This document shows, one piece after another, positions 7,128-61,586 of a stretch of 64,000 bases of DNA (position 1 is its first letter; every line of letters begins with the position of its first letter). The stretch covers positions 438,025 to 502,024 of the forward strand of contig CAWHXI010000001.1 in NCBI GenBank assembly GCA_963833345.1, written 5' to 3'. Below the pieces are notes generated by a model. That model did no database searches, was not told the DNA's origin, and saw only the letters and a program-made list of their open reading frames with translations. Both the position numbers and the translations under genes were made by a program. This DNA comes from an uncultured Acidobacteriota bacterium. Its GTDB lineage: Bacteria > Acidobacteriota > Terriglobia > Acidiferrales > UBA7541.

Positions 7128-7406
7128 ATACCCTGCCAGTCCGCTAGAGGCCTTTCGTTGCCTTCAGAATCCCCGCTAAGTGGGAGCACAGTCGCGCCGC
7201 ACGACGTCCGCGGCAAGAATTTCTGATTTCGGCCACGAACTGGATGGTTTTCTATTGCAAGATTGGAGAATTTACTTGGCGTTGCAGACGGGATGAACCG
7301 AGCTAAAGTTGGAAAGCTAATCAACGCAGAAAATATCGAAGCCTCAATGCGGCCGATGTGAGAATGCTTCTCAGCGAACAACGTAGAAAATCACGTCGGC
7401 TGTCTT

Positions 7407-8060
7407 TCAAGGCTTCCGGCTGATGACGTTTTCTTTTTCCAGCGCATCGATTACGACCTTAACCAGCCCCTTAATCGCCTTCATCGGCGAATTGCCATCA
7501 AAAGTATTCGTGGTTCCCGTCCAAACGAGTTCTCCGTCTGGCTTTGCCGTGGCGTAAAAATTTGTCTCCACCTGCGCAAGTTTCTCTTTCTCCATATATC
7601 CAGGGGAATAGACCAGGGGAGACACGGCGCTGTAATACCCGTAAAAATTCCCATAAAGAGGATACGGATTGTAAACCTCGCCGGGCACGTAGGTGGTCTT
7701 CACCTGTGCTTTGGTCAATCGCGCCACGACGATTGCATCAAACTTCTGTTCCTGTATCAGCTCTTTCAAATCTTTCATGTCGATGGGCGTCGCGTTGGGA
7801 CGTGGCAGAAACACATAACTCTGTGTGGCCTGAACTCCCGGCCTGGCGATCGCCGCGACCAGCTCATCCTCGAATTCCGCGCGGTTCTCTGCCTTGCCGT
7901 TCAGGGCCAGCACGAGAATGTTGCTAAAGTGAGTCGTCCCCGAATAGTCCGGATTCTTCCAGCTCAGCAGCAATTTCGGGGAACTAGCCGCCAAGATCGC
8001 GGGGATGGCGAGTGCGGCCGCGATTAAAAGTGATCGTCGTCTCAAAGTCATTCCTCCCAC
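7407..8060 (-). CDS. hypothetical secreted protein
   Basis: 217-aa ORF with signal peptide (LRRRSLLIAAALAIPAILAAS). I do not recognise any family motif. Confidence 0.5.
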   Translation of the reverse strand: MGGMTLRRRSLLIAAALAIPAILAASSPKLLLSWKNPDYSGTTHFSNILVLALNGKAENRAEFEDELVAAIARPGVQATQSYVFLPRPNATPIDMKDLKELIQEQKFDAIVVARLTKAQVKTTYVPGEVYNPYPLYGNFYGYYSAVSPLVYSPGYMEKEKLAQVETNFYATAKPDGELVWTGTTNTFDGNSPMKAIKGLVKVVIDALEKENVISRKP

Positions 8061-8639
8061 TAGCTTTGTTTAATTCCTTGCGGCCAGAGCGTCCCCCGTT
8101 TACTGGTAACGACCGAGTTTAGCTCGCTGTTTGGGAGCGTGGGCTCAGCCTGTCCCCATTATCTGCGCAACTTCCCGGGCTAAGCCCTTTTGAATCATGG
8201 ATCAACGCGCGAGAGTCGTTGAAGTTACTGTAGCCTACCTCTGTTACGCGTCGACGCACACTGTCAAAACTTACAGACTCTTAACCGGCATCTTTTGGGG
8301 GCGTACCCTCAGTCGCGGAAAGCCCGCCACGGCTGCCGGCGGCGATTTATATCGTGGCGGTGAAGTCCCGAAGCGTATATGATTTGCAACATCCGCTGTG
8401 GTTAACGCGTCTCCGGGTTCAGGTGGCGCTTGCATCCTGAAGAAGAACGTCAAAATGCACAAAAACCTCAGCCCCGATTGCACTTGCAGTCCAGCATCAT
8501 CCCCCGTGGGATTGTTCTCCCCAGCCCTGCGGTTTGTCCTGTCATCGCTCTGCCTTGCCATAAGGGTCAACGCCAGCGCGTTACTTCTCTGCTTGGCAGC
8601 GTATTCGTGGCTAGACGCTTTCGCACAGTCGAGGTCCGA

Positions 8640-11600
8640 ATGAGCCCCACCCAGAGTCGCCTGTTGTGGGGCACGCCGAATCTGGATTCCCGGATCTCCA
8701 TAGCCGCACTCGCACTCCTGGTGGCCACAGTATCCTATCTGGCTGCGAAGCTGGCTGGGGCACTAGTCATTACTATCCCCCAAACGGTTTGGCCAATGTG
8801 GCCCGGGTGCGCGATCTTGGTCGCTGTTCTCCTTCTAGTGCCGCGGAAAACCTGGCCTATTCTTCTTCCTGCGGGCCTGGCCGGTTTTGTTCTCTATGAC
8901 TTGCAAGCGGGTGTCCCCCTTCCTTCGATCGTCTGGCTCATTCTCGTCGACACTCTTGAAATTCTCGTCGCTACCTGGGGGGTGAACTTTTTCCTGCATG
9001 GCAAGCCCCGTTTGGACAGCTTGGGAGCCCTTGCAAAGTACTCACTCTGTACTGTGTTTCTTGCTTCGCTCGTCGTTGCATCACTCGGAAGCCTCCGCTT
9101 AACCGGGGACTTCTGGCTCAGCTGGCGGTTTAGCTTTCTTTCGGAGGCGTTGGGCTTTCTCACTATAACACCGGCCATAATCGGTCTGTTCGGATTGCGC
9201 CGACCGTTTATCCGCGTCTCGCGAGTTCATTACCTGGAAGCAGCCATCCTGTTTTCTGTACTGGCTTCCTTGTGCTACCTCGTGTTCATGGCTCCTGGGA
9301 GGAGCGCTCCGCCGGCACTTCTCTATTCTCTCGTCCCATTTCTTATCTGGTCCGCTCTGCGGTTTGGGTCCGAAGGCGTCGGCTCCTCGGCTACCATTGT
9401 TGCCCTGATGTCCATTTGGGGTGCCGTTCACGGACGCGGCCCCTTCACGGAATCTGACCCCATCAACCGCGTGCTATCGTTGCAGCTCTTCTTATTGTGC
9501 ACTTCCATCCCTTTTATGGTTCTCGCTGTCCTCGTCGAAGAGCGCAAGATCGCACAGGTCGAGCTCAGCGAAAGCGAAGAGCGCTTACGTCTGTCTATGG
9601 AATCCGGTAAAGCAGTAGGCTGGGAGTGGGACCTTAAGACCGGAAGAGACTCCTGGTTCGGTGACCTCAAATCTATGTTCGGAATCCCAGCCGAGCATTT
9701 TGTCGGACGTCCAGAAGACTTCCATCGTTACGTTCACCCGGAGGATCGACATTACGTCTCCCAGGCCGTAGCCGAAGCAAGGCTAAGCCATCTGCCTTAC
9801 GATGCGGAGTTCCGCGTTGTTTGGCCCAACGGGAACGTCCGCTGGGTCGCGGCGAAGGGGAATTTTTACTATTCGGAGACTGGCCTACCCGAGCGCATGC
9901 TAGGCATGGCCCTAGATGTTACGGAGCGCAAACTCGCGGAACAGGCCTTGCGCGAGAGTGAGGCAGCCCTCACGGAAGCGCAGCGGCTTGCAAACGTGGG
10001 CAGCTGGCAATGGGATGTGCAAACCGATACGGTCACCTGGTCAGAACAACTCTATCGGATCGCAGGTATTGATCCCTCTCTGCCCGCCGTCAGTTACCAG
10101 GGGCACGCAACCCTCTACACCCACGAAAGCTGGCTCCGCCTTCGGAGCGCGGTCGAGGAAGCGTTGCGTTCGGGAGCCCCCTACGAACTCGATCTTGAGA
10201 TGAATCACTCCGACGGCACTAGAAAATGGATCATCGCCAAGGGTGAAGTACGTCGCGATGGCGCCGGGAACATCGTCAAGCTTCGCGGTACGGTTGATGA
10301 CATTACCGTTCGCAAACGAGCGCAGGAGGAACTTCGCAAGAGCGAGGAGCGGCTGCGTCTCGCAATCCAGGCCGGAAAAATGTTTACCTGCGACTGGGAC
10401 GCGACCACAAATGTATTCACCCACTCGCCAGAAAGCGTCCAGATTCTCGGGGAGGATCAGGCTAGCTCTAGCACCGGCGAACAAATCTTGGACAGCGTAC
10501 ATACAGAAGATCGAGAGGTATTTACGGCCGCGGCTGCTAGCCTCACCCCCGAAAAGCCCGACATTAGGATCAGCTACCGCATGATGCGCTCGGACGGCAC
10601 CGTGATCTGGTTGGAAAGGAATAGTCGCGCGCAGTTTGACCCACAAGGCAGGTTGCTGCGGATAATCGGCATTGTAACGGACATCACGGAGCGCAAACGC
10701 GCGGAAGATGCAGTCCGGCAAAGCGAAGAAAAGTATCGCAGGATCGTGGAGACTACAAATGAGGGAATTTGGCTTCTTGATTCAAACTTTGACACCTCCT
10801 TTGTGAATCGTCAGATGGCGGAGATGCTCGGATACCAACCGGCAGAAATGCTCGGGCGCAGCGTTTTCGATTTTTTCTTTCCCGAGGATGTTGGGCGCAA
10901 GCGGCGAGGTTTGGCGCGCCGTCGGGAAATGCACAGCGAACAATTGGATGATCGGCTCCGTCGAAAGGACGGCGCTGAATTATGGGTACGAATGACAGCC
11001 ATTCCGATCTCCAAGGACAATGGAGATTTTGGCGGCTCTATGGCGATCGTGGCTGACATTTCCAGCCAGAGGCTAGCAGAAATTGCTCTTCGCGAGAGCG
11101 AATCACGCTTTCGCTTGGTGGCCAACACCGCCCCCATGCTAATTTGGATGTCGGATACCTCAAGGTTGTGCACCTATTTCAATCACTCCTGGCTCGCGTT
11201 CACTGGTCGTTCTATGGAGCAGGAGCTCGGAAATGGCTGGACGGAGGGCGTTCACCCCGAGGATTTGCAAAAGTGTTTTGATACTTATGTTCAGGCTTTT
11301 GATGCGCACGAGAAGTTCACGATAGAGTATCGCCTCCAGCGCTACGACGGCGAATATCGCTGGGTTCTGGATCTTGGGGTGCCCAGGTTCAACCAGGATG
11401 GTTCTTTTGCAGGCTACATTGGCTCGTGTGTAGATGTTACCGACCGCAAGCTCGCCGAAGAAGCCCTTTCTGGCGTGAACAGCAAGCTCATTGAGGCCCA
11501 AGAGCGTGAACGCGCCCGCATCTCCAGAGAGCTTCACGACGACATCAGTCAGCGTCTCGCGATGTTGACCATCGAGTTAGAGCAGCTCGGGCAGAAGTTC

Positions 11601-13147: not shown

Positions 13148-14599
13148 TCACTCCAAGCTGATCGGCACGTAGATCAATCTGCCCTCCCGCTGGATTTGCA
13201 GCACAAAAGGGACTCCCGGTGGGCAAGCTTTCAATGCTGAGCGCAAGCGCTCTAAGGTAGTCATAGGCTGGGTGTTCAAACTGCGGATCACATCCCCCGG
13301 CGCAAGAGGGACGTCCCCTAGGGATCCCGTCACCCGCGCGGTCACAACAATGCCAAACGGATCTCTCAATCCCCGCAACATAGCAGCGGTCTTCTTGTCG
13401 ATTTCCACACCCACTATGCCTAGCGGTGAAATCAGATTCTTTTGAGGGTCCGCAAGCGAGATGAGCTGATCCACATCTTGGCCTTCCTCAACCGTCCCCA
13501 CGCTGAAAACTTGTTTCGCTGTTCCTCTGAGAACGGTGACTTGCACCTTGTCTGCTGAATCCCGCAGGAGGAAAAAATAGTTCACACTCGGCAGGTTGTC
13601 GGCAGGCTGCCCATCGATCGACACCAGTATATCGCCAACCATCAAGCCCGCTGCTTCCGCAGGACCCCCAGGAAGCACGTCCGAAATGATGACCCCATAT
13701 TCCTGTTTCAATCCAAGTCCCACAGCAATGGACGGCGTGATGGTTTGGATTCCAATACCAATCTCTTGCCTGCGCAGGTGTCCGAACTGCTTCAGCTGCC
13801 GGTACACCGTTCTGACCGTTGCCGAAGGGATGGCAAAACCCAACCCCTCGTTCCCACCCGATTGCGAAAGGATGAATGTGTTTACGCCAACGACCTCTCC
13901 ATTTAAGTTTACAAGCGGACCGCCCGAGTTCCCCGGGTTGATCGGTGCGTCGGTTTGGATGTAGATCAGCGGCGAATCAGGGTCGAGTTGCCTTGCCACC
14001 GCCGAGATCAACCCATGAGTGATGGAATTTCTTAGCCCTTCGGGGCTGCCAAAAGCAAAAACAGTATGGCCTTGCCTCACCTCCCGGTAGGACGCTAGCG
14101 GCAGTGCCGGAAGTTTTGTGTTTTCAATTTTTAGCAGCGCGAGGTCCTTCTCACGCGCCACTCCGATGAGTCGAGCCGGGACGGTATCGATCCTTCCCGA
14201 AAGGGCAGTCGCCAGCGAACCGTCCGTGTTTGGGGGTGGAAGGACGACCTCGATGCGCTGCGCTCCGTTCACCACATGCGCGTTCGTTATGATGTAGCCT
14301 TCCGCATCGATGACGAACCCCGAACCGCTGGCGCGTTGCCGTCCAATCACGGCCCCCGCATTCCCCCGGCTGCTATCCTCGAGGGGCGCATAGGCCGTCA
14401 CGATGATCTGGACGACGCTCGGCGAAACCTTTTTGATCAGCGCATCCACCATCGAGTCAAATTGGCTGGCGGATTTTGCCGTGGAAGGTGCTTGGGCGAG
14501 GGCTTGGAACGCGAATCCGAACAGCACACACTGTACCAAAATGGCGCGGCAGCCGAGCCTCTTGGCAAACCGAACGCGATGAAAGCCGACTTCAGGCAT
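13148..14599 (-). CDS. HtrA/DegP/DegQ-family periplasmic serine protease (trypsin-like domain + 2 PDZ)
   Basis: GSGFVIDAEGYIITNAHVV (His), D in REKDLALLKI, GNSGGPLVNLNGEVVGVNT (Ser). Two PDZ-like segments follow. ATG at 14599 is preceded by AAGGAG; the ORF track extends to 14665. Confidence 0.9.
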   Translation of the reverse strand: MPEVGFHRVRFAKRLGCRAILVQCVLFGFAFQALAQAPSTAKSASQFDSMVDALIKKVSPSVVQIIVTAYAPLEDSSRGNAGAVIGRQRASGSGFVIDAEGYIITNAHVVNGAQRIEVVLPPPNTDGSLATALSGRIDTVPARLIGVAREKDLALLKIENTKLPALPLASYREVRQGHTVFAFGSPEGLRNSITHGLISAVARQLDPDSPLIYIQTDAPINPGNSGGPLVNLNGEVVGVNTFILSQSGGNEGLGFAIPSATVRTVYRQLKQFGHLRRQEIGIGIQTITPSIAVGLGLKQEYGVIISDVLPGGPAEAAGLMVGDILVSIDGQPADNLPSVNYFFLLRDSADKVQVTVLRGTAKQVFSVGTVEEGQDVDQLISLADPQKNLISPLGIVGVEIDKKTAAMLRGLRDPFGIVVTARVTGSLGDVPLAPGDVIRSLNTQPMTTLERLRSALKACPPGVPFVLQIQREGRLIYVPISLE

Positions 14600-14998
14600 T
14601 CGACACGCTCCTTTTCCTGGGTCGCCCGATTCGAGAGCCGCTCGATCTTCTGAGCGCTTGGCCACAGGTTTACCCTGTCGGTTCGCGCAGCTCTCCCCGA
14701 GCGTTGGCAGCTTATGACTGCCTACTTAGCTCAGTACACTGGCAAAACTACCGCGTCGCTTTAGCGCTACCCTTGCGCCAGAAGCTAGAGTCGGACTACC
14801 GCCACCCAGGAGCGCGCGCCCCGGGCGTCGCCACTTACAATCCGGTTGCTGCGTCAATCTGCGCCTTGGGGAGAAAAGCCCGCACTAAAATGTGCAATGT
14901 TGGACAGTCAGACCAGATTCTGATTATCTACACTCGCCTCCTAGAGTCTCCAGGTTTGTGTCCACTGGCACGGACCATCAGGAAGTGTGGGAGGGTTT

Positions 14999-15332: not shown

Positions 15333-18300
15333 GTGATGCGCTCACTCGGGGTGTGGTCTGTCCTGGCGGTCTCTCTCTTTTACAGCGGCAGCGGAGCCAT
15401 TGCTGCCGCGCAAGACGCTCCCAGTCCGTTGATAGTGGAAGAAGACAAGATGCGCTTCCGCTTGCTTCCTCATACTGTTCTCGAATTGCCTGTCGTTAAT
15501 TCCACCAATAAACCCGTCTCTGGAAAGTTCAAGCTGTCGTTGCTCAACTACGAGGACGACTCGGTTGCCGCCGCGATGTCAGGAACGTTTGTCGAGTCAC
15601 CGGGCGAAACCGTAGAGAAGATCGATTGGCCAGTCGCACATTTGCCGAGCGACACGCCAACCGAACTCGGCTGGTATCGCCTGCAATACAGCTTTGAGCC
15701 AGAAACCGAGTCTGGCGTACCAGCGGCCAGCGGAATCGTCCAGCTTGGTAAAATCATTACCGACGGGTTCGGAATAACCATCGCTGCGGCAACGAAAGTC
15801 GCGCCCGGCAGCAAGTATCCTGTACGCCTCCATGTAGAAAACCCATCGACGCACCAGCCCTATGCGAATAGTCCCATCGAGCTCGTGCTAGAGTTCGGCG
15901 ACAACGAAGATACTGACGTTAAGCGCAAGATCAAAACCGATGCGGCAGGCAATGCTACCGCTGCCTTTGACCTGCCGCAGAATCCTTCGGATCAACGCGG
16001 AGAGGTCACTGCCACAGTGGCCCGCGGTCCATACAGCGAAGAAGCCAAGCTCGAGTTTGAATTCCCGGATAAGCCCGCTCCGGCACTAACCGTCACAACT
16101 GATAAGCCGCTCTACCAGCCTGGCCAAACCGTTCATGTACGTCTTTTTGCCATCGATTCGGACAGGCACGCCATGGCCGGCGCGAAGTTAGACGTGGAAA
16201 TTGACGATGAAGCTGGCGGCGAACAGTTCCATGAAAAACTGACCACTTCTCGCTTTGGCATTGCTTCGGCGGATTGGGAAATCCCAAAAAAGCTGCAACT
16301 TGGCAATTCCACTATAGTCGCCCAATTTGACCGTTCGGAAGCCGACTACTGGAGTCAACGCCGCACCGAAATCCGCATTAGCCGCTATGAGTTGCCAACT
16401 TTCACCGTCAGCGTCGACCCCGACCATACGTATTATCTCCCCGGCAGCAATGCTGTCGTGGATGTGCATGCGGATTATCTTTTTGACAGGCCTGTGCAAC
16501 ACGGCAAAGTAAGAATCGTACAGCAGGAGAACCGGCACTGGGATTATGCAACGCAGAAATGGGAAGTCGACGAATCGGCGCCCGTCGAAGGTGAACTCGG
16601 GAGCGATGGCCATTTCAAAGGCACGATCAACCTTGCCGACGAATTCAAAAGTTTCAAGGAAGGCGATTCCGATCGATTCGAAGATCTTACTCTGGCGGCG
16701 TATTTGACGGACTCCTCAACCGGCCGCACCGAGCAGCGAAGGTTCAAAATCCGCATAACCGCCCAGCCCATTCACCTGTACGTTCTCGAGTCGGCCACCG
16801 CGCACCGCAATCAGCCTTCTGTTTTCTATGTCACCAGTTCGTACGCCGATGGAACCCCTGTCTCGGCAAAGGGGAAGATATTCGCTGCGCAACCCACCAA
16901 TGACGAGAATTCTCAGAACGGCTTTGACCTCAGCCGCCGCAGGCAAATTGGCAGTTTCCGTACGAATCGCTTTGGCGTCGGCCGCGTGGAAGTTTCTCCC
17001 TTTCTGGAAGAGGATCTTCGCATCCCAACGTGGTACCCCCATCGGCACAATTATCAATATGGCTACGATGAAGCGTCCACTAATGAACCCACCGAGCGTA
17101 CTGCATGGCTCGTACTAGAAGCTCTCGATTCCAAAGGATTAAGCGGTGAGTACGATCAGCAACTTTCCGTCGCAACCAATGATGAATTCCTCCGCGTCCA
17201 GACTGATCAAACTCTATATCACCCCGGAGATTCGATCCTTGTCACGCTGAATTCCAACTCGAAAAATAGAGATGCAGTGTTGAGTGTTTGGGGCGAGAAA
17301 GGACTCCTGTCCTCCCAGCTCGTGCCTTTGGTCCGCGGCCACGCCACCGCAACGGTTGAATTCGATCCGCGCTTCCTCGGAAGTGTTTTTCTGACGGCCT
17401 CCAGCCTGGTTCCTTCCGGCGATCAGCAAACGGCGCTCTACGGATGGACGCAAGTCCTCTACCCGGCCCGCAAAGAGCTAGAAGTAAAGGTAAAGATGCC
17501 GCAAACCACTTTCAAACCCGGTGAGCAAGTTTCCGCCGACGTCCGCGTTCTGACTCCGGAAGGCCATTCGACGGAAAGCGCCCTGGGACTTCTGGTCTTC
17601 GATCGTGCTGTGGCGGAACGCGTTCGAACCGACGAGGATTTCGGACGCGATTATGGCTACTCCATCTTTGATTACTTTGGCTGGGAATATCAACGCAGTA
17701 TTGGTGGCATCAGTCATCGCGACTTGCTTGATTTGGACGCGACCAAGCCATTTCCCGAAGGGCTGGACCTCGTTGCCGAGGGCATGATGCGCACGGGTTC
17801 TGGTCCATGGATGGCCGTCGAATCACTGGAGGGCGGGGGATGGGACGCGCTCGGCGCGTCCGGCACTTTTTCGAAATGGATGCAGATCATGCTCCAACCG
17901 GTCAGAAAAGCTTTGAATGACTGGTACTCCGCGAACGGTGAATACCCAAGCGATGAAACCGGCGTGCGCGCGGCGCTACAGTCGAAAGGTATTGATACCG
18001 ATCAGATCCGCGATCCCTGGGGCAATCCTTTTCTCGTTAAATCTTTTTTTAAGGGCGCGGACCATGTCGTGAACCTCCTCAGCAGCGGTGTGGATAAGAA
18101 GCCCGGCACCAGCGATGACTTCGTCGTCGCCACTTTTCACTGGCCCTACTTTCGTAAAATTGGAATGCAAATCGACCACGCGTCCGCCCAATATTTCTCA
18201 GCGACCGGGAAATATATCCGCGACTATGACACTCTGAAAGAGGAAATGAGAGAGCAGGGAATCGATCTGGATACTCTCCGCGATCCGTGGGGCCACGCGT

Positions 18301-18971
18301 ATTCCTTCACTTTCGATATTTCGGGTCCATATTTCCGAATCTCGGCTGATAGCGCTGGTCCGGACGGCATCTTCAACAGCAAAGCCAAAGCATCGTGGGA
18401 CGACGTCGAAGTCTGGATGTCCAGCATCCACTATTTTATGGCCGAGAACGCCGCACTGAATACTGCCATCGCTGAAAACTTCAAAGCCACTGGATCTTTT
18501 CCCCAGAACGAAGAGCAGCTCAAACCGATTCTCGCCATGGCGAAGTTGGACCCCGAGCGCCTTCTCGATCCTTGGGGCCATCCCTATCACTTTACATTTA
18601 GCGCCCAAAGCCGTTACGCCGACCGGCTCACTGTTCGCGACGTCCGCGCTTATTCCGATCCCGCACAAAGCAAGAAAGTGACAGAAGACATTCCGGTAAC
18701 CCAACAGGTCGCCTACCTCAGCGTGCTTAGCAATGGTCCGCAGAACGATCCGAATCAGGCCTTTTCCGTCACCGAATTCAGCCGCGTAGTTGCTGAACAA
18801 ACGAGCAAGGACAAGGCGCCTGTTGCCACCGGAAATCAAAAACCGCTCGCAGGCAACACCGGCGGCATCTACGGTGTGATCACCGACCCGTCCGGCGCAG
18901 CCATTACCAATGCGGAGGTCACCGCAGTTTCCGTTGACACAGGACAAGTCTTTACAACTCAAGCCGACTAG
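15333..18971 (+). CDS. alpha-2-macroglobulin-like secreted protein, N-terminal part (MG domains + 3 GspG-like modules), ending at an in-frame TAG
   Basis: Signal peptide. MG-type motifs: TTDKPLYQPGQTVHVRL, QTDQTLYHPGDSILVTL, TTFKPGEQVSADVRVL. Three DPWG pseudopilin-like repeats. Ends inside a CarboxypepD_reg domain. Confidence 0.85.
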   Translation: MMRSLGVWSVLAVSLFYSGSGAIAAAQDAPSPLIVEEDKMRFRLLPHTVLELPVVNSTNKPVSGKFKLSLLNYEDDSVAAAMSGTFVESPGETVEKIDWPVAHLPSDTPTELGWYRLQYSFEPETESGVPAASGIVQLGKIITDGFGITIAAATKVAPGSKYPVRLHVENPSTHQPYANSPIELVLEFGDNEDTDVKRKIKTDAAGNATAAFDLPQNPSDQRGEVTATVARGPYSEEAKLEFEFPDKPAPALTVTTDKPLYQPGQTVHVRLFAIDSDRHAMAGAKLDVEIDDEAGGEQFHEKLTTSRFGIASADWEIPKKLQLGNSTIVAQFDRSEADYWSQRRTEIRISRYELPTFTVSVDPDHTYYLPGSNAVVDVHADYLFDRPVQHGKVRIVQQENRHWDYATQKWEVDESAPVEGELGSDGHFKGTINLADEFKSFKEGDSDRFEDLTLAAYLTDSSTGRTEQRRFKIRITAQPIHLYVLESATAHRNQPSVFYVTSSYADGTPVSAKGKIFAAQPTNDENSQNGFDLSRRRQIGSFRTNRFGVGRVEVSPFLEEDLRIPTWYPHRHNYQYGYDEASTNEPTERTAWLVLEALDSKGLSGEYDQQLSVATNDEFLRVQTDQTLYHPGDSILVTLNSNSKNRDAVLSVWGEKGLLSSQLVPLVRGHATATVEFDPRFLGSVFLTASSLVPSGDQQTALYGWTQVLYPARKELEVKVKMPQTTFKPGEQVSADVRVLTPEGHSTESALGLLVFDRAVAERVRTDEDFGRDYGYSIFDYFGWEYQRSIGGISHRDLLDLDATKPFPEGLDLVAEGMMRTGSGPWMAVESLEGGGWDALGASGTFSKWMQIMLQPVRKALNDWYSANGEYPSDETGVRAALQSKGIDTDQIRDPWGNPFLVKSFFKGADHVVNLLSSGVDKKPGTSDDFVVATFHWPYFRKIGMQIDHASAQYFSATGKYIRDYDTLKEEMREQGIDLDTLRDPWGHAYSFTFDISGPYFRISADSAGPDGIFNSKAKASWDDVEVWMSSIHYFMAENAALNTAIAENFKATGSFPQNEEQLKPILAMAKLDPERLLDPWGHPYHFTFSAQSRYADRLTVRDVRAYSDPAQSKKVTEDIPVTQQVAYLSVLSNGPQNDPNQAFSVTEFSRVVAEQTSKDKAPVATGNQKPLAGNTGGIYGVITDPSGAAITNAEVTAVSVDTGQVFTTQAD

Positions 18972-18986
18972 GCGGGAGCCTACGCC

Positions 18987-21431
18987 TTGCTGAATCTGCC
19001 CGCAGGCTTCTACCAAGTCGAGTGCACTTCGAAGGGATTTAACCGCAGCATCGTGCAGCGCGTGCCGGTTGAAATGGGTTTTTCGACAAAGGTCGATCTC
19101 ACACTCAATGTAGGCGCTGTATCGGAGAGCGTAGAAGTCACCGCAAACGCAGCTACAGTTCAAACCCAGTCCGCCCAAGTGACTGCCGTTTCCAACCAAA
19201 TAGCTTCCACCGCACAGAAAAAGCCGCTCTTCACTCCGCGCCTGCGCAAATATTTTCCGGAAACGTTGCTCTGGCGGCCCGAAGTCATCACCGATGAACG
19301 CGGCCATGCCCACATCGACTTCCCCATGGCCGACAATATCACCGCCTGGAAAATGTCTGTGCTTGCCTCCACCGAAGCTGGTCAGGTCGGCATCGCGGAA
19401 AAAGAGCTGCGCAGTTTTCAGCCTTTTTTCCTGGAAAACGATCCGCCAAAGGTTCTGACCGAAGGTGACCAAATCAGTTTGCCAATCGTCCTGCGCAACT
19501 ACACCGCCGTTCCGCAAACGGTCTTCACGGAAATGCAGCCGGCGCAGTGGTTCACGATTCTGTCGGCGCCAAAGCTAAGCCTCACCGTCCCTCCGAACGG
19601 CGACGCCACATCCGTATTCACCTTCCGCGCGGATCGCAGCGAGAGAAACGCCAAGCAGCGCGTGACCGCAAGAAATAGCGCGGCTGGCGACGCCGTCGAA
19701 CGCGAACTGGTTGTTCATCCAGACGGGCAGGAAATTTCATTCACCTCGAGCCGCATTCTTGCGGGCGATCATAATTCTATCGATGTGCAAGTACCCGATA
19801 CCGCCATCTCCGGCTCGATAGACGCCGAACTCCGCATCTATCCGAACTTGCTAGCTCACGTTTTGGACGCCATGCACGGAATTGGCAAGCTTCCCACCGG
19901 TTGCGCCGAGCAAATCACCTCCACGTCCTATGTAAGTCTGATGGCGCTCCAACTCCTCCAGAAAAGCGCACCAGATAAACAGGACACTTTGAATCCGCGT
20001 GCCGCGCTTGCAGCAGAAGCCCGGGCCGCAGTCCAGGAAGGTTACGACCAACTGGCAGGATTGCAGAATTCGGACGGCGGTTTTATCTACTGGAAAGGCA
20101 TGCCATCCAATGTCGCTCTGACCGCCTATGTTTTGCGCTTCTTGAATTTGGCAGGAGACTTCATCGAAGTCGATGGAGCGATCCGCCGAAGGGCGCGCGA
20201 TTATTTGGTCGCACGCCAGGCCAAGTCAGGCGCCTGGACTTCTTATCGCTGGGATCTTCAAAAAGAAAAAGAAGAGGACGATCCCAACCTGACCGCCTAT
20301 GTCGCGCGTGCCTTGGCCGGCATGAAAATTGATCCGGCCGCCAAAGATCCTGAAAAGCAAAAGCAAGCTCAGACCTCGTTGAAATCCGCCCTGGACTTCC
20401 TTGAAGCGCGCATCGATTCCTGGAGCGACCCGTATCTCGCCGGAAACTATGCAATTGCCGCAGTCGAAAGTGCACGCCCGGAGCATATCGAAAACGCCGA
20501 ATCAGTTCTGCGCCGCCTCGCCCATCGCGAAGGCGATGCGACTTACTGGAACCTCGAGGCCAATACATCACCATTCTACGGTTGGGGACTTGCCGGCCGA
20601 CTGGAGACCACCGCACTCGCGGTGAAGGCTCTTTCCGAATTGCAGACCAAGCGTCCTGAGCAAGATGTTCCAGATATGATCAGCCGCGGACTCCAATATC
20701 TCCTGACCCACAAAGATCGATACGCGATGTGGTACTCAACGCAAGCCACACAAAACGTGTTGGAGGCCATGATCGCGGCACTTCCTCCAGCCGCCGAGGG
20801 CGCCGCAGCGTCCGAGGCCGTGCTAAAAATCGATGACCGCGTGCTGCGTTCTGTGGCCCTGCCAAACCCACAAGATGTCGTCGGCCCGGTGACAATTCCA
20901 CTGGCCAACGATTTGACGAAAGGCACGAACAAAATCGAATTCGCTCGATCTGGCAGTGCAGGGGCGATGAATGCCTCGGTAGTCACAAGCTATTACATCC
21001 CGTGGACCGAGTCCGAAGCCATCGCCAAGGAGGCTTTCAAGACGGGCGAGAATCGCGCCCTGCGATTCAAAGTCCTCTACGATCGCAACGAACTTCGATT
21101 GGGAGACACAGTCCGTTGCACCGTCGAAGCCGAGCGCGTCGGATTTCGCGGCTACGGCATGATGCAGGCGGAGGTGGGACTTCCCCCCGGTGCCGAGGTA
21201 GATCGCTCCTCGCTGGAGAACGCCGAATCCTCTCCTGGAGTCTTTGGCTATGAAATTCAGCCCGACAGAGTGGTTTTCTATTTGTGGCCCACCGCTGGGG
21301 GAACAACTTTCGCTTTCGACTTCCGCATGCGATATCGCATCGCAGCAATGACCGCGCCCGCTGTTGTCTACGACTACTACAACCCTGAGGCAAACGCCAC
21401 CGTCGCGCCGGTGCGTTTCACGGTTCGCTAA
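18987..21431 (+). CDS. alpha-2-macroglobulin-like protein, C-terminal part (A2M core, thioester domain, receptor-like domain); same frame as 15333..18971
   Basis: RKYFPETLLWRPEVITDERGHA...DNITAWKMSVLA (A2M core). Thioester motif GCAEQ at 19899..19913. No RBS of its own. Contiguous in frame with the upstream ORF across TAG 18969..18971. Confidence 0.85.
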   Translation: MLNLPAGFYQVECTSKGFNRSIVQRVPVEMGFSTKVDLTLNVGAVSESVEVTANAATVQTQSAQVTAVSNQIASTAQKKPLFTPRLRKYFPETLLWRPEVITDERGHAHIDFPMADNITAWKMSVLASTEAGQVGIAEKELRSFQPFFLENDPPKVLTEGDQISLPIVLRNYTAVPQTVFTEMQPAQWFTILSAPKLSLTVPPNGDATSVFTFRADRSERNAKQRVTARNSAAGDAVERELVVHPDGQEISFTSSRILAGDHNSIDVQVPDTAISGSIDAELRIYPNLLAHVLDAMHGIGKLPTGCAEQITSTSYVSLMALQLLQKSAPDKQDTLNPRAALAAEARAAVQEGYDQLAGLQNSDGGFIYWKGMPSNVALTAYVLRFLNLAGDFIEVDGAIRRRARDYLVARQAKSGAWTSYRWDLQKEKEEDDPNLTAYVARALAGMKIDPAAKDPEKQKQAQTSLKSALDFLEARIDSWSDPYLAGNYAIAAVESARPEHIENAESVLRRLAHREGDATYWNLEANTSPFYGWGLAGRLETTALAVKALSELQTKRPEQDVPDMISRGLQYLLTHKDRYAMWYSTQATQNVLEAMIAALPPAAEGAAASEAVLKIDDRVLRSVALPNPQDVVGPVTIPLANDLTKGTNKIEFARSGSAGAMNASVVTSYYIPWTESEAIAKEAFKTGENRALRFKVLYDRNELRLGDTVRCTVEAERVGFRGYGMMQAEVGLPPGAEVDRSSLENAESSPGVFGYEIQPDRVVFYLWPTAGGTTFAFDFRMRYRIAAMTAPAVVYDYYNPEANATVAPVRFTVR

Positions 21432-21864
21432 AGTTTGCTTTGAAAGCCTGCTGGAGCCAAACGGGCCCGGATTTTCTTCCGTGTTTCCATAAGTGCGCGG
21501 GAATCATCAGGTCTTCTCTGTAAGAAACATGGGATTTTCAATTAAAAACGATGGACATCCAGAATGACTCGCATGTACAGCAGATTATCGCGGCCATGAC
21601 CGCGGACGCCATTTCAAGCGGTTTCTTGTTAGAAGACTCTTCCGAAATCGCCGAGATCGGTTTCACGTACCTCGAACGAAACCATCATGCTCTGAATCCG
21701 TGAGGAATCTCGCGCCCGTCACGGAGCCCGCCCCACAGTCAGAAACCGCGGACGCCTCGGCCTATGGGAGCTGAGCATTTTTGTTACCGAGTCAAATCTG
21801 TGGTATTAATGAAGTGAGCCCCCGCCCTCCACTCAGCCCAGAAATGAATCTAAGGAGAATCGTA

Positions 21865-22260
21865 ATGAAAATCGAAAGAATATTGGGCGGATTGGTGTCC
21901 TTGGGTATGGTTGCGGCGATGGCCGTACCCTTGGCGTTAGCGAAACCACAAGACCCATCCGCACCCCAAGCCTCAGGTAAAGAAATGGGAATGCGCGGTG
22001 GACTGCAGGCCGCAGTAGAGAGCTTGAATCTTACTGACGACCAGAAAGCAAAGGTAAAGGATATCTTTACTGATGCGAAGACCAAGCGCCAAGCAGTATC
22101 CAACGACACTTCGCTTAGCGATGACCAGAAAAAGGCGAAGTTGAAGGAGCTTCACGAAGGCACGATGGCCAAGCTGAACGCCGTGCTGACACCTGATCAA
22201 CAGACCGAGTTGAAGAGCAAGATCGAAGCTGCAAAGACAAAACCACCATCGCAGCCGTGA
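21865..22260 (+). CDS. Spy/CpxP-like periplasmic LTXXQ-motif protein
   Basis: AAGGAG RBS, signal peptide MKIERILGGLVSLGMVAAMAVPLALA. Repeated LTDDQKAKV / LSDDQKKAKL / LTPDQQTEL motifs. Confidence 0.7.
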   Translation: MKIERILGGLVSLGMVAAMAVPLALAKPQDPSAPQASGKEMGMRGGLQAAVESLNLTDDQKAKVKDIFTDAKTKRQAVSNDTSLSDDQKKAKLKELHEGTMAKLNAVLTPDQQTELKSKIEAAKTKPPSQP

Positions 22261-23279: not shown

Positions 23280-26200
23280 TTGGAGATGACCATGAAGAGA
23301 GTTGACCGCGATCCACCGGGCGCAAGTCTAAGGCCAGTTCCCGGTGCGGAATCGAGAAACAATGGGAAAGACCATGTTGCCGAAATATCGGCACCCGATC
23401 TCAGCCTCTTACTTTCGAGCCTGCAGACCATGCGTGACGGTGACTTCTCCGTTCGCCTCCCCGGAACTTGGACAGGCTTGCCTGGAAAACTCGCGGATAC
23501 ATTCAATGAGATTGTCTCTTCGAATCAGCAAATCGCTCATGAGCTGAGGCGCGTGGGCCAGGTAGTAGGGAAGGAAGGCAAAACGCGCGAGCGAACACAA
23601 TTTCACCAGCCGCGGGGCGCTTGGGGCGAGATGGAGGTATCGATCAACACGCTCGTTGACGACCTGCTCCAGCCGAACACAGAAGTCACGCGCGCGATCG
23701 CTGCCGTAGCGCAAGGCAACCTGACGCAAACCGTTCGCCTGGACGTGGATGGACGACCGCTCGAAGGCGAATTTCTCCGTTCCGCCACAATCGTTAACAC
23801 CATGATTCAGCAGCTCGGCGTTTTTACCGCCGAGGTGACTCGCGTCGCTCGTGAAGTTGGTACGGATGGAAAGCTCGGCGGCCAGGCACAGGTGCCAGGT
23901 GTCGCTGGTACTTGGAAAGACCTGACGGACTCCGTGAATTCGATGGCCAGCAACTTGACCGGGCAAGTTCGTAACATCGCCGAAGTGGCCACGGCGGTTG
24001 CCAGCGGCGACCTCTCACGCAAGATCACGGTAGATGTCCGCGGAGAAATTTTACAGCTCAAGGAAGCCATCAACACGATGGTCGATCAGTTGCGCTCCTT
24101 CGCTTCCGAAGTCACGCGTGTTGCCCGCGAGGTTGGCACGGACGGCAAGCTCGGTGGCCAGGCGGTTGTGCCCGGCGTGGCGGGAACCTGGAAAGACCTT
24201 ACGGACTCCGTCAACGCGATGGCCGGCAACCTCACGGCGCAGGTACGCAACATTGCCGAGGTGACGACCGCAGTGGCGCGAGGCGACTTGTCGCGCAAAA
24301 TCACCGTGGACGTGAAGGGCGAGATCCTCGAATTGAAAGACACCATCAATACGATGGTGGACCAGCTGAACGCTTTCGCGGGCGAAGTCACGCGTGTCGC
24401 TCGCGAGGTCGGCACCGAAGGCAAACTGGGAGGCCAGGCGCAGGTCCCAGGCGTCGGTGGTACGTGGAAAGACCTCACCGACAACGTGAACTTTATGGCC
24501 AGCAACTTGACCGGCCAGGTTCGCAACATCGCCGAAGTCGCCACGGCCATCGCCAGCGGCGACCTCTCCCGAAAGATTACGGTCGACGTGCGCGGAGAAA
24601 TCCTGCAACTGAAAGAAACTCTCAATACCATGGTGGACCAGCTAAACCGGTTCGCGGGCGAAGTGACGCGCGTAGCTCGCGAAGTAGGTAGCGAGGGCCG
24701 GCTGGGTGGACAAGCGAACGTGCCCGGAGTCGCCGGTACTTGGAAAGACCTAACGGATTCTGTTAATTCGATGGCAGGAAACCTGACCGGCCAGGTGCGC
24801 AACATCGCTGAGGTCACGACGGCAGTCGCACGCGGCGACTTGTCTCGCAAAATCACCGTAGACGTGAAAGGCGAAATTCTCGAACTGAAGAACACCATTA
24901 ACACGATGGTGGACCAGCTCAACGCCTTCGCCGCGGAAGTCACTCGCGTCGCTCGCGAAGTCGGCACCGAAGGGAAGTTGGGAGGCCAGGCACAAGTTCC
25001 TGGCGTCGGCGGCACCTGGAAGGACCTCACCGACAACGTAAACTTCATGGCCAGCAACCTCACCGGCCAAGTCCGTAACATCGCCGAAGTTGCCACCGCA
25101 GTTGCACGCGGCGACCTCTCCCGCAAAATTACTGTGGACGTCAGGGGCGAGATTCTCGAGCTGAAAGACACGCTCAATACGATGGTGGACCAGTTGCGCG
25201 CTTTTGCGTCTGAAGTGACGCGCGTCGCTCGCGAAGTTGGTACCGACGGAAAACTCGGCGGCCAAGCGCAAGTTCCCGGTGTCGCAGGCACATGGAAAGA
25301 CCTTACGGACTCCGTCAATTCCATGGCCAGCAACCTGACTGGCCAGGTACGCAATATCGCGGAAGTCGCAACGGCCATCGCCAGCGGCGACCTCTCAAAG
25401 AAAATCACAGTCAACGTGAGCGGCGAAATCCTGCTACTCAAAGAAACCATCAACACGATGGTGGACCAGCTAAACGCTTTCGCCGGCGAAGTCACGCGCG
25501 TCGCGCGCGAAGTAGGCAGCGAAGGCCGCCTTGGTGGCCAGGCCAACGTGCCTGGGGTTGCCGGAACTTGGAAGGACTTGACGGACTCGGTCAACTCGAT
25601 GGCAGGAAACTTGACCGGGCAAGTGCGCAACATCGCCGAAGTCACGACTGCGGTCGCGCGCGGCGACCTATCCCGCAAGATCACCGTGGACGTAAAAGGC
25701 GAAATCCTCGAACTAAAAGACACCATCAACACGATGGTGGACCAGCTGAACGCCTTCGCCGGCGAAGTCACCCGCGTGGCCCGCGAAGTCGGCACGGACG
25801 GTAAACTCGGCGGTCAAGCCCAAGTCTCTGGCGTGGCCGGCACATGGAAAGATTTGACCGACAACGTCAACGTCATGGCTGCCAACCTCACCGAACAGGT
25901 GAGAGGTATCGTCAAAGTCGTCACCGCTGTCGCAAACGGCGAGCTGACCAAGAAACTCACCGTCAACGCCAAAGGCGAGGTTGCGGCCTTGGCCGAAACC
26001 ATCAACAACATGACCGATACGCTTGCCACTTTTGCCGATCAGGTAACGACGGTCGCCCGCGAAGTGGGCGTCGAGGGGCGCCTTGGCGGACAGGCCAACG
26101 TCCCCGGAGCTGCCGGCACATGGAAAGATCTTACGGGCAACGTAAACCTTCTTGCAGATAACCTGACCAACCAGGTTCGCGCCATCGCGGAAGTAACAAC

Positions 26201-29054
26201 CGCGGTCACCAAAGGCGATCTCACACGTTCCATTCAGGTGGAGGCAAGCGGAGAAGTAGCCGAGCTCAAAGATTACATCAACACCATGATCGACAACTTG
26301 CGGCTAACGACGGACCGGAACAAGGAACAAGACTGGCTGAAAACCAATCTCGCGCGCTTTACCGGTATGCTCCAGGGCCAGCGCGATCTCTCCACCGTAG
26401 GGCGCATGCTCCTGTCCGAGCTCGCACCCCTCGTCAACGCCCAGCAAGGCGTGATCTATCAAATGGAGACAGATGAATCGTCTGAGATGATGCTTCTCTC
26501 GGCCTACGCCGATGACGCACCGAACGGACATGCGCGTCAGTTGCGAGTGGGCGAGGGTCTCGTTGGCCAGTGCGCGGCGGAGAAGCGCCGCATGCTCATC
26601 ACCGAAGTCCCGCCGCATGCTGTTCCCATTCGTTCCGGATTATTCAAGGCTGTGCCTCTGAACGTGATCGTGCTTCCCGTGCTTTTCGAAGATCGCGTTA
26701 AAGCGGTCATTGAGCTGGCCTCATTGAGCACTTTTACGGCCTCCCATCTCGCGTTCCTAGAACAATTGACCGCCAGCATCGGCATTGTGCTCAACAGCAT
26801 CGAGGCCACGATGCAGACCGAAGGCCTGCTAAAACAATCTCAGCAATTGGCTACCGAACTCCAAACGCAGCAGAAAGAGTTGCAGCAGACCAACGAGCAG
26901 CTTGCTCAAAAAGCCCAGCAACTTGCTGAACAAAACGTCGAAGTGGAACGTAAGAACCAGGAAATCGACCAGGCCCGCCGCGCCGTGGAAGAAAAGGCAA
27001 AAGAACTGGCTCTCACCTCCAAGTACAAATCAGAGTTTCTTGCCAACATGTCCCATGAGCTGCGAACTCCGCTCAACAGTATTCTCGTCCTAGGCCAGCA
27101 GCTTACTGATAATCCCGACGGCAACTTGACCGTCAAACAAGTCGAGTTTGCCCGCACCATTCACGGGGCCGGCACGGACCTGCTGAATCTCATTACCGAC
27201 ATTCTCGATCTCTCCAAGATTGAATCAGGAACGGTTTCCGTTCAGGCTGAAGAAGTTTTCTTTGCAAGTTTGCTCGACATGATGGCTCGTCCATTCCGGC
27301 ATGAGGCGGAGAACCGTCGCTTTACATTCGAGTTGACCACGGATCCGCGGTTGAGCCGCAGTTTGGTCACAGATTCGAAGCGATTGCAGCAGGTCCTCAA
27401 GAATCTGCTCTCCAACGCATTTAAATTCACCGAACAAGGCAGTGTGCGGCTGTCCGTGTTCCTGGCCGAGCGCGGCTGGAGTGATGACCATGCCGTTCTT
27501 CGAGCAGCGCCAGCCGTCATTGCTTTCCAGGTCGAGGACACTGGCATCGGCATTCCACCGGAAAAACAGCGCATTATCTTCGAAGCCTTCCAGCAGGCCG
27601 ACGCAGGGACTAGCCGTAAGTATGGCGGCACGGGACTAGGACTGGCCATTAGCCGTGAGCTGGCTAATCTCCTCGGCGGCGAAATCCAACTACGTAGCGA
27701 AGCTGGAAAGGGCAGCACGTTTACCCTCTATCTCCCGCAAACCTACGTGGGGCCATCGACGGGCGTCAATGTTTTGGAAATGAGAACCGCTCCCATTCAG
27801 GCTCCGCAATTGGTTCCTGCAATCGCACCCGAACACCGTATCGAACCGATTGAAGATGATCGTGCAAACCTCCAGGAGACCGACGCCGTTTTATTGGTTG
27901 TCGAGGATGACCCCCACTATGCCCGTTTGCTCCGCGATTTGGCGCGAGACAAGGGATTCAAGGTTCTGGTTGCCACTCGGGGCGCCGAAGGGCTCGCCTT
28001 GGCACGCGAGTTCCATCCCATGGCCGTTTCCCTTGATATCTTCCTGCCGGACATGCTGGGTTGGACCGTGCTCAATCACCTGAAGCAAGATCCCTCCATG
28101 CGCCACATTCCGGTACAAATCCTGACCCTGGATGAAGACCGACAGCACGGCCTCTCTCGTGGGGCATTTGCATTTGTTCAAAAACCTACGACGCCCGATG
28201 AACTCAACAATGCGTTTTCACGCATCAAAGAATACGCAGCGCCTCATCTCAAGCGTCTACTGGTTGTAGAAGATAACCCCGGTGAGCAGCTGAGTATTCG
28301 CGAGCTGCTCGGCCATCACGATATCCACGTTTCTATCGCCGCGACTGGTGAAGAGGCGTTGGCCGCCATTGCTAAAGAGACATTCGATTGCATGGTTCTT
28401 GACCTCCGTCTGCCCGATGTGTCCGGCTTCGATGTTTTGGAGCGCTTGCGCGATACACCATCACGAATTGATTTACCGGTAGTTGTATTCACGGGGAAGG
28501 ATTTGTCCCCAGAAGAAGATGCCCGCCTGCGCACTCTGGCCCGAAGTGTAGTTGTGAAAGGCGTGGAATCGCCGGAACGGCTTTTGGACGAGACCGCCCT
28601 TTTCTTGCATCGCGTCGTTGCCCACCTTCCTGTCGAGAAGCAGCAAATGCTGGACCGCTTGCACCGCTCGGATGACGCACTGGTAGGAAAGAAGGTTCTC
28701 GTTGTGGATGATGATGTCCGCAATATCTTTGCTCTGAGCAGCGTGCTCGAGCGTCGTGGAATGACAGTCTTGACTGCCGGTACGGGCCGCGAAACCATTG
28801 ATATCCTTAGTTCAACTCCTGATGTGGCGATCGTACTCATGGATATCATGATGCCGGAGATGGATGGTTATGAGACCATGCAGGTCATCAGGCAGAATCC
28901 GGCATTCCGGCGTCTTCCGATCATTGCCCTCACGGCAAAAGCAATGAAGGGGGATCGAGAGAAGTGTCTGGAAGCAGGTGCATCTGAATATCTTGCGAAG
29001 CCGGTCAATACGGAACAATTGCTGTCGGCACTACGAATGTGGCTCCATCGGTAA
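23280..29054 (+). CDS. soluble poly-HAMP hybrid sensor histidine kinase (HAMP array, GAF, coiled coil, HisKA, HATPase_c, 3 x REC)
   Basis: No TM segment. Eleven HAMP-pair units, 9 of them near-identical. GAF-like segment ([14 protein letters not shown]). [16 protein letters not shown] (H-box). [13 protein letters not shown] (G2). Three receivers ([10 protein letters not shown].., [10 protein letters not shown].., [10 protein letters not shown]..). Confidence 0.95.
23823..26306 (+). repeat. in-frame tandem array, 9 x 276 bp (92-aa di-HAMP units)
   Basis: Each unit starts F-[AT]-x-[EQ]-V-T-[RT]-V-A-R-E-V-G and ends ..NTM[VI]D[QN]L. Unit boundaries checked at 23823, 24099 and 26306. Confidence 0.9.
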
Positions 29055-53517: not shown

Positions 53518-53572
53518 TGGCATGAACCAGCGACGGGAAGTTGTCGAAACTTCAAGTATAGTGAGGAATACA

Positions 53573-54532: not shown

Positions 54533-54558
54533 ACGTTGACGGAAGGGGAACCCAAACC

Positions 54559-61400: not shown

Positions 61401-61586
61401 ATCATCGGCATGGTGCCCATGGCCCTCGGACTGGGAGACGGAGGCGAACAAAATGCCCCTCTTGGCCGGGCGGTCATAGGTGGCTTGATTTTCGCTACGG
61501 TTTCGACGCTGTTCTTTGTCCCGGCATTTTTCAGCGTTCTGCAGGGTTCGCGCCGGCATTCGGCTCAACCGGTAAAGCAGCACTAA
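58405..61586 (+). pseudogene. RND efflux permease (AcrB/CzcA superfamily) disrupted by at least 7 frameshifts
   Basis: Collinear RND segments are spread over ORFs 58405.., 58664.., 58815.., 59533.., 59579.. and 60723.. in frames 1,2,0,1,2,1,2,0. Examples: ..RQLP|PPGTTPPLI|AYSASSVPVLQL.., ..TSIIVL|SAIGETINIMTLGGLALAVGILVDDA.., ..IVFAP|MFLLSGVARYLFVPLAEAV.. Confidence 0.85.

Follow-up and report, generated by a model that had tools for sequence, protein, structure and literature searches.

Which part of a thioester protein of the alpha-2-macroglobulin (A2M) superfamily acts as the bait, when the place of the bait appears to be taken by folded domains? This question is raised by a gene found in a 64,000-nucleotide stretch of DNA (the window) from an uncultured Acidobacteriota bacterium (assembly GCA_963833345.1, contig CAWHXI010000001.1, positions 438,025 to 502,024). 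Thioester proteins (A2M, TEPs, complement) are central to animal innate defence, and their bacterial relatives are poorly understood. The original prediction, based on the letters of the window, held that the short bait of an A2M had been replaced in this gene by three tandem modules resembling GspG, the major pseudopilin of type II secretion, followed by a CarboxypepD_reg domain. The analysis described here indicates that the window protein is neither an ECAM- nor a MagD-type bacterial A2M, and that it is a member of the A2M/TEP group with a new kind of insert in domain MG6.

The gene is found as two open reading frames (ORFs) on the forward strand, 15333-18971 and 18987-21431, which share one frame and are split by a single TAG; joined (15333-21431), they encode an A2M/TEP-type thioester protein of 2032 codons. 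The joined reading is justified since the CarboxypepD_reg match spans the TAG and the relatives are intact with a Tyr at that position. On the joined protein, Pfam recognizes MG2 (residues 254-342, 80.7 bits), MG3 (residues 352-434, 23.9 bits) and TED_complement (PF07678, residues 1512-1813, 89.6 bits, E 2.6e-25), and the matches to MG2, MG3, A2M_BRD, A2M and A2M_recep all exceed their Pfam cutoffs. The thioester motif GCAEQ corresponds to residues 1523-1527 (nucleotides 19899-19913), and C[GA]EQ occurs exactly once in each member of the family; family counts in this work refer to 66 full-length proteins, and locus counts to the best 80 loci of 281 genomes. All 66 proteins begin with Sec-type signal peptides lacking a conserved lipobox. 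As part of the explanation favoured below as a whole, the window protein is regarded as probably secreted, and as a non-lipoprotein member of the A2M/TEP/complement superfamily. In the signal-peptide region, four close relatives have a Cys (SLFYCGSG) where the window has a Ser (SLFYSGSG); the F-Y-C context of this Cys is unlike that of a typical lipobox, and the residue is not kept across the wider family.

Between the end of A2M_BRD (residue 760) and the start of the A2M core (residue 1311) lies an insert of about 540 amino acids, about 420 of which make up a folded cassette composed of three T2SSG-like modules (M1, M2 and M3) and CarboxypepD_reg. The segment 17870-19115 singled out by the original prediction corresponds to residues 846-1261 of the joined protein and had been described accurately: DPWG is found at residues 894, 984 and 1079, all three quoted segments are present, and CarboxypepD_reg follows the modules. 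The three modules are clearly related to each other, both by BLASTP (E 1e-8 to 1e-11) and by hhalign, with E values of about 1e-25 (M1 against M2, 99.7%, E 2e-25; M1 against M3, 99.6%, E 6.6e-25). An AlphaFold2 (AF2) model of residues 761-1177 (417 amino acids, built from a 20-sequence alignment, mean pLDDT 77) resolves into three compact alpha+beta units that share the order helix-helix-strand-strand-strand, preceded by a disordered lead-in in which residues 761-789 and 819-838 fall below pLDDT 50.

The survey of orthologues that had been proposed shows the insert to be conserved: relatives of its three-module region are encoded in 281 GTDB species genomes, and among the 66 orthologues the conservation of the modules (0.54-0.59) is comparable with that of MG2 (0.59) and TED (0.58). 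The fact that the modules are conserved like the core argues against their being a bait sequence, and a conserved structural or binding role is more likely. Module number is evolvable, as indicated by a clade of five loci (GTDB Acidobacteriota / Angelobacter metagenome-assembled genomes, MAGs) in which M1 has been duplicated, giving four modules in the order M1-M1'-M2-M3.

The relationship of the modules with GspG is strongest for M1. Pfam T2SSG matches it at residues 853-928 with 37.4 bits (cutoff 21; E 2.9e-9), covering positions 17-100 of the 108 of the model, so that T2SSG joins A2M, the thioester domain and CarboxypepD_reg among the proposed profiles that the joined protein does match. 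When the profile of M1 was compared with the PDB, chains of GspG, PulG, XcpT and EpsG filled the top six places and 9 of the 17 listed matches (best 3g20, E 1.5e-4), with alignments running from the helix to the C-terminal loop. Against the sequence of 3g20, hhalign gives 95.6% (E 1.3e-8) for M1, 90.5% for M3 and 71%, with a partial alignment, for M2; the alignments of M1 and M3 span 73-74 columns. M2 and M3 are related to GspG through profiles only, and T2SSG is the sole Pfam family matched by orthologous M2 (6 of 17) and M3 (2 of 13) segments.

A number of observations weigh against this assignment. Modules 2 and 3 of this genome, taken alone, miss significance with Pfam T2SSG (E ~0.1). A Foldseek search of the PDB with the model of the 417-residue insert returned only noise and no significant pseudopilin, and the isolated M2 model (pLDDT 86.7) likewise had no significant match in the PDB. 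In these searches a filament model of XcpG came no higher than rank 7, with E 1.2. Of the structural comparison with GspG suggested by the original prediction, what stands is the order of secondary structure (H-H-E-E-loop-E in the AF2 model of M2), which is compatible with GspG; the significant structural match did not appear. The homology of the modules with GspG is well supported by sequence, and the fold is tentatively assigned from profiles together with the order of secondary structure elements. The same facts, with an NCBIfam gspG match that lies far under its cutoff, could be read as the sign of a lineage-specific domain, non-homologous to pseudopilins, which would resemble them through the short DPWG/DD motif alone. 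This seems highly improbable in view of the M1 match above the Pfam gathering score over nearly the whole model, the GspG chains heading the PDB comparison, the length of the hhalign alignments of M1 and M3 to 3g20, the lack of any other Pfam family among the orthologous modules, the identical spacing of the calcium ligands and the matching order of secondary structure.

As far as function is concerned, the modules share with GspG, PulG, OutG and XcpT the homologous globular head (T2SSG), the DPWG preceding beta1 and the calcium-ligand spacing D-x4-T/S-x-DD, but they differ in lacking the class III signal peptide and the hydrophobic alpha1-N helix required for polymerization. Moreover, they are internal to a 2032-residue protein, occur as tandem repeats and are not associated with a gsp operon. 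Each module begins at an amphipathic helix similar to alpha1-C, the hydrophobic alpha1-N being missing, and the prepilin motif G[FM]T[LI][ILV]E is found neither in the window protein nor in any of the 66 full-length family members, which bears out the earlier observation that a prepilin leader and a hydrophobic helix are absent. The modules cannot assemble as pilins and are not functional pseudopilins.

Where is the bait? From cryo-electron microscopy of A2ML1, the LNK region and the bait are known to form one insert in MG6, and in complement proteins an anaphylatoxin (ANA) domain replaces the bait (PMC9156758). Once cleavage has taken place, a conserved Arg and a conserved Phe (Arg730 and Phe733 of A2ML1) drive the retraction of the BR-C segment through a channel, and equivalent residues have been described for A2ML1, C3b and C4b (PMC9156758). 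The least conserved segments of the acidobacterial protein are residues 821-845 and 1259-1296, that is, on the two sides of the cassette. The upstream loop, at about residues 819-845, has the lowest conservation of the protein (0.30) and varies from 21 to 37 amino acids across orthologues. The downstream linker, linker C (1259-1296), is rich in T, Q, A, S and V, has a disorder-prone composition and a conservation of 0.43, and ranges from 38 to 72 amino acids among the 66 orthologues; it is predicted to be the most probable scissile region. Downstream of it the sequence TPRLRxYFPETLLW is nearly invariant, and R1305 and F1308, which correspond to Arg730 and Phe733 of A2ML1, are identical in 66 of 66 proteins. 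The C-terminal block of homology detected in the PDB by phmmer restarts at query residues 1299-1303, aligned with residue 727 of A2M, 774 of C4 and, in the alpha' chain of C3b, residue 16, immediately past the region of the bait or anaphylatoxin. Since a variable linker and the R-x-Y-F plug are kept in the canonical place, the cassette appears to have been added in front of a bait-like linker that is still there, and the claim that the bait had been replaced is not supported.

Taken as a whole, these data are probably best explained by an MG6 insert laid out as in C3, with the cassette in the ANA position and activation started by a cut in the linker. The insert would comprise, in order, the LNK-like segment, the hypervariable loop, the folded cassette, the bait-like linker and the BR-C plug with its R-x-Y-F motif, after which comes the second half of MG6, the cassette consisting of three (in some species four) leaderless GspG-head-like domains and one CarboxypepD_reg beta-sandwich. 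A protease would cut linker 1259-1296 just upstream of the plug, the R-x-Y-F plug would then retract, the MG ring would rearrange and the thioester would react, as in A2ML1, C3 and C4. The cassette, being unable to pass through the channel, would stay on the N-terminal fragment, or would be released if the loop at 819-845 were cut as well. The cassette would probably serve as a folded wedge or handle, conserved and probably stabilised by Ca2+, either keeping the protein in its native state or binding a partner that is itself conserved, and it appears not to be itself the bait. Some weaknesses of this scheme should be taken into account: the cleavage sites, the binding of Ca2+, any ligand and the placement of the cassette relative to the MG ring are deductions, and the 80 loci offer no conserved neighbourhood (no flanking family is common to more than 9 of them) and with it no functional hint.

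The strong conservation of the modules, which would fit a conserved partner, their location within the activation region and their number, three or four depending on the lineage, could also be reconciled with a different proposal, close to that of the original prediction, according to which the modules have replaced the bait and serve either as decoys or for the recognition of an attacker, be it a protease or a pilin-targeting protein of a phage or predator, which the thioester would then tag. This proposal is unlikely, given that the variable linker and the invariant R-x-Y-F plug persist in their canonical place, and that the modules lack the variability of true baits, which are the parts of A2Ms that vary most. 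We know, in addition, of no ligand of GspG heads.

The calcium ligands lead to another possibility. Those of OutG and PulG are D117, T/S122, (D124) and D125, in the beta2-beta3 loop (PMC13081927). In M1, 65 of the 66 family members have the spacing D-x4-[TS]-x-DD, so that M1 keeps the GspG calcium-ligand motif and is a candidate Ca2+ site; M3 has the motif in 32 of 66, not including the clade of this genome, and M2, in which the loop is lengthened, never matches the strict motif. Since loss of calcium leaves PulG disordered and leads to its degradation in vivo (PMC13081927), it might be imagined that the modules fold only with Ca2+ and, unfolding at low Ca2+, become protease-sensitive and trigger or tune activation, as a calcium-gated bait. 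Besides the M2 loop and the loss of the motif from M3 in half of the family, this genome included, two considerations make such a gate very unlikely, namely that OutG is stable without calcium (PMC13081927) and that a cut upstream of the folded domains would not be expected to free the plug for retraction, as may be deduced from the A2ML1 mechanism (PMC9156758). An extension of the C3-like layout, in which the protein would be a bacterial counterpart of C3, and no mere protease trap, and its cassette of pseudopilin-like and Ig-like domains a conserved safety wedge, freed by cutting both of the hypervariable linkers that flank it, with a released fragment of ~45 kDa or Ca2+-dependent folding serving to signal or to recognise targets, must be considered rather improbable; if true, it would mean that the head of a pilus subunit has been co-opted for a non-filament use.

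Returning to the favoured scheme of a retained linker with a cassette upstream, its relation to known thioester proteins can be considered. The best PDB matches obtained by phmmer with an intact relative are of eukaryotic type (Xenopus A2M, TEP1, C4, CD109, A2ML1, human A2M and C3), and chains of ECAM or SaA2M are absent among the 54 PDB sequence matches; by this measure, the family appears to stand nearer to A2M, TEP and C4 of eukaryotes than to ECAM. With the eukaryote-type A2Ms and TEPs (human A2M, A2ML1, Xenopus A2M, Anopheles TEP1 and CD109) it shares the MG2/MG3/BRD/A2M/TED/RBD Pfam architecture, the CxEQ thioester and the variable linker directly preceding the R-x-Y-F-P-E-T plug. It differs from them in the folded cassette of ~420 amino acids upstream of the linker, in ~200 extra N-terminal residues and in being a bacterial protein with a Sec signal peptide.

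With complement C3, C4 and C5 the protein has in common a folded domain inserted at the corresponding place, with LNK on one side and Nt-alpha'/BR-C on the other (PMC9156758), and variable segments on both sides of this domain; since the cassette occupies the position of their anaphylatoxin domain, a structured domain in this place has a precedent in the superfamily. The cassette, however, is not the four-helix bundle of ANA and is about five times larger, neither ANATO nor NTR/C345C is recognized by Pfam on the joined protein, which has no C345C domain, and there is no sign of furin-like processing or fragment release. The likeness to C3, C4 and C5 is one of insert position only.

The proteins of the MagD/YfaS type have no thioester motif and their gene is part of the six-gene mag operon. 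Together with ECAM/YfhM and SaA2M, which have a thioester, they resemble the acidobacterial protein in being bacterial and envelope-directed and in having an MG keyring with a TED. Yet the acidobacterial protein has no lipoprotein signal of the ECAM/YfhM type, which serves as an anchor in the inner membrane (its own cleavage site lacks a Cys, and the orthologues have a Sec-type A-x-A), and its gene shows no linkage with pbpC, the neighbours in the window being others and no flanking family recurring in more than 9 of the 80 loci; with respect to MagD/YfaS, it possesses the thioester motif and is not in a mag operon. The bMG families of Pfam have no significant match on the joined protein. The bait of ECAM is a short disordered stretch at about residues 923-942 (PMC4498604).

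The TAG that interrupts the frame deserves separate consideration. The N-terminal ORF is present in a public protein collection, where its 90%-identity cluster holds at least 10 intact proteins of 2030-2033 amino acids, and the four members whose sequences were inspected have Tyr at the TAG position (TTQADYAGAYALLNLPAGFY). One of these cluster members lies on a syntenic contig, 97% identical in DNA, which has TAT at this site and no indels over the 6096-nucleotide gene, with 72 synonymous and 64 non-synonymous codon differences with respect to the window. The TAG results from one T-to-G difference that is seen in this assembly only, and is either a consensus error of the assembly or a very recent nonsense mutation. 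Readthrough or pyrrolysine-type recoding of the TAG has no support, the relatives plainly encoding Tyr (TAT).

A nonsense mutation would make the locus of this genome a real, recently inactivated pseudogene, from which only a fragment of 1212 amino acids without the thioester domain would be produced. The TAG does stand in the assembled sequence, frameshifts or an insertion sequence disrupt a few orthologues of other MAGs, and a second gene of the window is also broken. This is an AcrB/RND transporter gene at 58405-61586 (+), broken up into four ORFs that overlap and differ in frame, three of which match Pfam ACR_tran at model positions 136-377, 446-747 and 771-1020; a HlyD-family partner follows at 61609-62829. 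The split is due either to indel errors of the assembly or to decay of the pump, and it bears on the trust to be placed in the TAG of the A2M gene, since it indicates that errors or pseudogenes do occur in the sequence of the window. An inactivated gene is nevertheless the less probable alternative, although a serious one: a single lesion is present in 6096 nucleotides, with no indels against the intact relative, the proportion of synonymous to non-synonymous differences suggests constraint until recently, the closest relatives stem from MAG projects based on long reads, in which an error of the consensus is plausible, and the frame is intact in 65 of the 80 species loci.

The first protein search had retrieved only fragments of up to 720 amino acids, even from contigs longer than 100 kb, and the six loci inspected were all frameshifted, at different positions. 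This apparent universal fragmentation is a selection bias, intact long proteins having been missed, to which some error-prone long-read MAGs contribute. Programmed recoding or systematic pseudogenization of the orthologues was rejected on the basis of the intact 2031-residue cluster members and of the 65 uninterrupted loci out of 80 in GTDB. One of the broken genes is truncated by a transposase. In a short-read MEGAHIT assembly (GCA_020072645.1, locus ~6090-9824), the frame of the orthologue changes twice, and past CarboxypepD_reg the gene is interrupted by that of a DDE_3 transposase, close to where the contig ends; this copy has the look of a true pseudogene of its lineage.

The distribution of the family was studied by scanning GTDB, with one genome per species and the three-module region as query, which is the source of the 281 species genomes mentioned above. 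The best 80 loci are all from MAGs, and 77 of them carry an acidobacterial name in the record title (Acidoferrales/Acidoferrum, Acidobacteriaceae, Terriglobales, Bryobacterales, Solibacteraceae, Angelobacter, Pyrinomonadaceae and Blastocatellia); the three exceptions are titled 'uncultured bacterium', Betaproteobacteria and Clostridia, the last two being probably mis-binned. The uninterrupted frames of the 65 loci have 1886-2199 codons, and most of the other loci are cut by contig ends. A hidden Markov model search of 1.84 billion representative sequences gave 318 clusters (50% identity) at E <=1e-30, most of them of 1900-2140 amino acids with the modules at about residues 780-1150. As far as sampled, this large family does not extend beyond Acidobacteriota, a phylum among the dominant ones in soil.

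The suggestion that an A2M with pseudopilin-like domains at the bait site had not been described agrees with the literature searched, and not with the databases. Searches for papers on A2M with pseudopilins, on macroglobulins of Acidobacteria and on pseudopilin-like domains found nothing relevant. There are, on the other hand, hundreds of database entries with automatic Pfam labels, in which T2SSG is already paired with A2M domains, under generic names such as 'YfaS (alpha-2-macroglobulin family)' (JGI), 'alpha-2-macroglobulin family protein' and 'carboxypeptidase-like regulatory domain-containing protein'. The architecture is therefore present in databases and, as far as the searchable literature shows, undescribed.

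The interest of the family lies in the location of a conserved folded cassette exactly at the site that controls activation. It allows one to ask, in a natural system, what load the MG6 insert can bear with the plug-retraction mechanism still working, and it is the first case found in which the head of a type II secretion pseudopilin serves as a domain inside another protein and does not polymerise. Should the cassette turn out to be releasable or to serve in recognition, it would represent a bacterial parallel to the release of anaphylatoxins. The features of the gene are listed in Table 1.

Table 1. Features of the A2M/TEP-family gene, with positions in the window (residue numbers are those of the joined protein).
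Feature	Position	Strand	Basis
A2M/TEP-family thioester protein gene, complete	15333..21431	+	Same-frame ORFs; Pfam domains; intact 2031-residue relatives
Sec-type signal peptide, ~26 residues, ending AAA/QD, without lipobox Cys	15333..15410	+	Sequence; 66 orthologue N-termini Sec-like
A2M_BRD (MG5/MG6a), residues 620-760	17190..17612	+	Pfam PF07703, 41.4 bits, E 2.2e-10
LNK-like segment, residues 761-818, including conserved D..KPxPxGLDLVAE helix region	17613..17786	+	Conservation 0.55-0.61; low-confidence short AF2 helices
Hypervariable loop, predicted disordered, about residues 819-845, candidate upstream cleavage site	17787..17867	+	pLDDT <50 at 819-838
Module M1, residues 839-939, GspG-head-like, Ca-ligand motif DKKPGTSDD at 921-929	17847..18149	+	Pfam, PDB profile, hhalign
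Module M2, residues 940-1034, GspG-head-like, Ca loop longer by ~5 residues	18150..18434	+	hhalign, AF2
Module M3, residues 1035-1158, GspG-head-like, beta-hairpin insertion of ~29 residues, Ca motif lost in this lineage	18435..18806	+	hhalign
Linker B, residues 1159-1178, P/T/Q/G-rich	18807..18866	+	pLDDT <50; fraction of disorder-promoting residues 0.88
CarboxypepD_reg beta-sandwich, residues 1179-1258	18867..19106	+	Pfam PF13620, 55.6 bits, E 6.8e-15
In-frame TAG in CarboxypepD_reg domain, codon 1213; Tyr (TAT) in relatives	18969..18971	+	Relatives' sequences
Linker C, residues 1259-1296, variable, low-complexity, canonical bait position	19107..19220	+	Composition, conservation
BR-C / Nt-alpha'-like plug (TPRLRKYFPETLLW), R1305 and F1308	19221..19274	+	66/66 invariant
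Pfam A2M domain, residues 1311-1398	19263..19526	+	PF00207, 72.5 bits, E 2.5e-20
Thioester domain, with GCAEQ inside	19866..20771	+	PF07678, E 2.6e-25
A2M_recep (MG8/RBD), residues 1942-2023	21156..21401	+	PF07677, 36.5 bits, E 7.7e-9

The A2M gene of the window is flanked on one side by a gene for a divergent HtrA/DegP-like serine protease (Trypsin_2 and PDZ; 13148-14665, minus strand) and on the other by a gene for a small LTXXQ (Spy/CpxP-like) protein (21781-22260, plus strand), which, with the HtrA-like neighbour, has a flavour of envelope stress. Both neighbours are kept in the 97%-identical relative and in none of the loci of the 80 other species. Further neighbours in the window encode response regulators and kinases. 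Among the latter is a hybrid histidine kinase of 1924 amino acids (23280-29054, plus strand) with at least nine HAMP/HAMP_2 repeats, an unusually long array, together with GAF, HisKA/HATPase and three receiver domains; a receiver-HisKA_3 kinase follows at 29125-30246. Farther downstream, at 52462-54532 (plus strand), the ORFs of a DUF3300 and a DUF2950 protein overlap by ~350 nucleotides as listed, the real start of the second being probably downstream, and they are followed by a di-haem cytochrome c peroxidase-like gene at 54514-56088.

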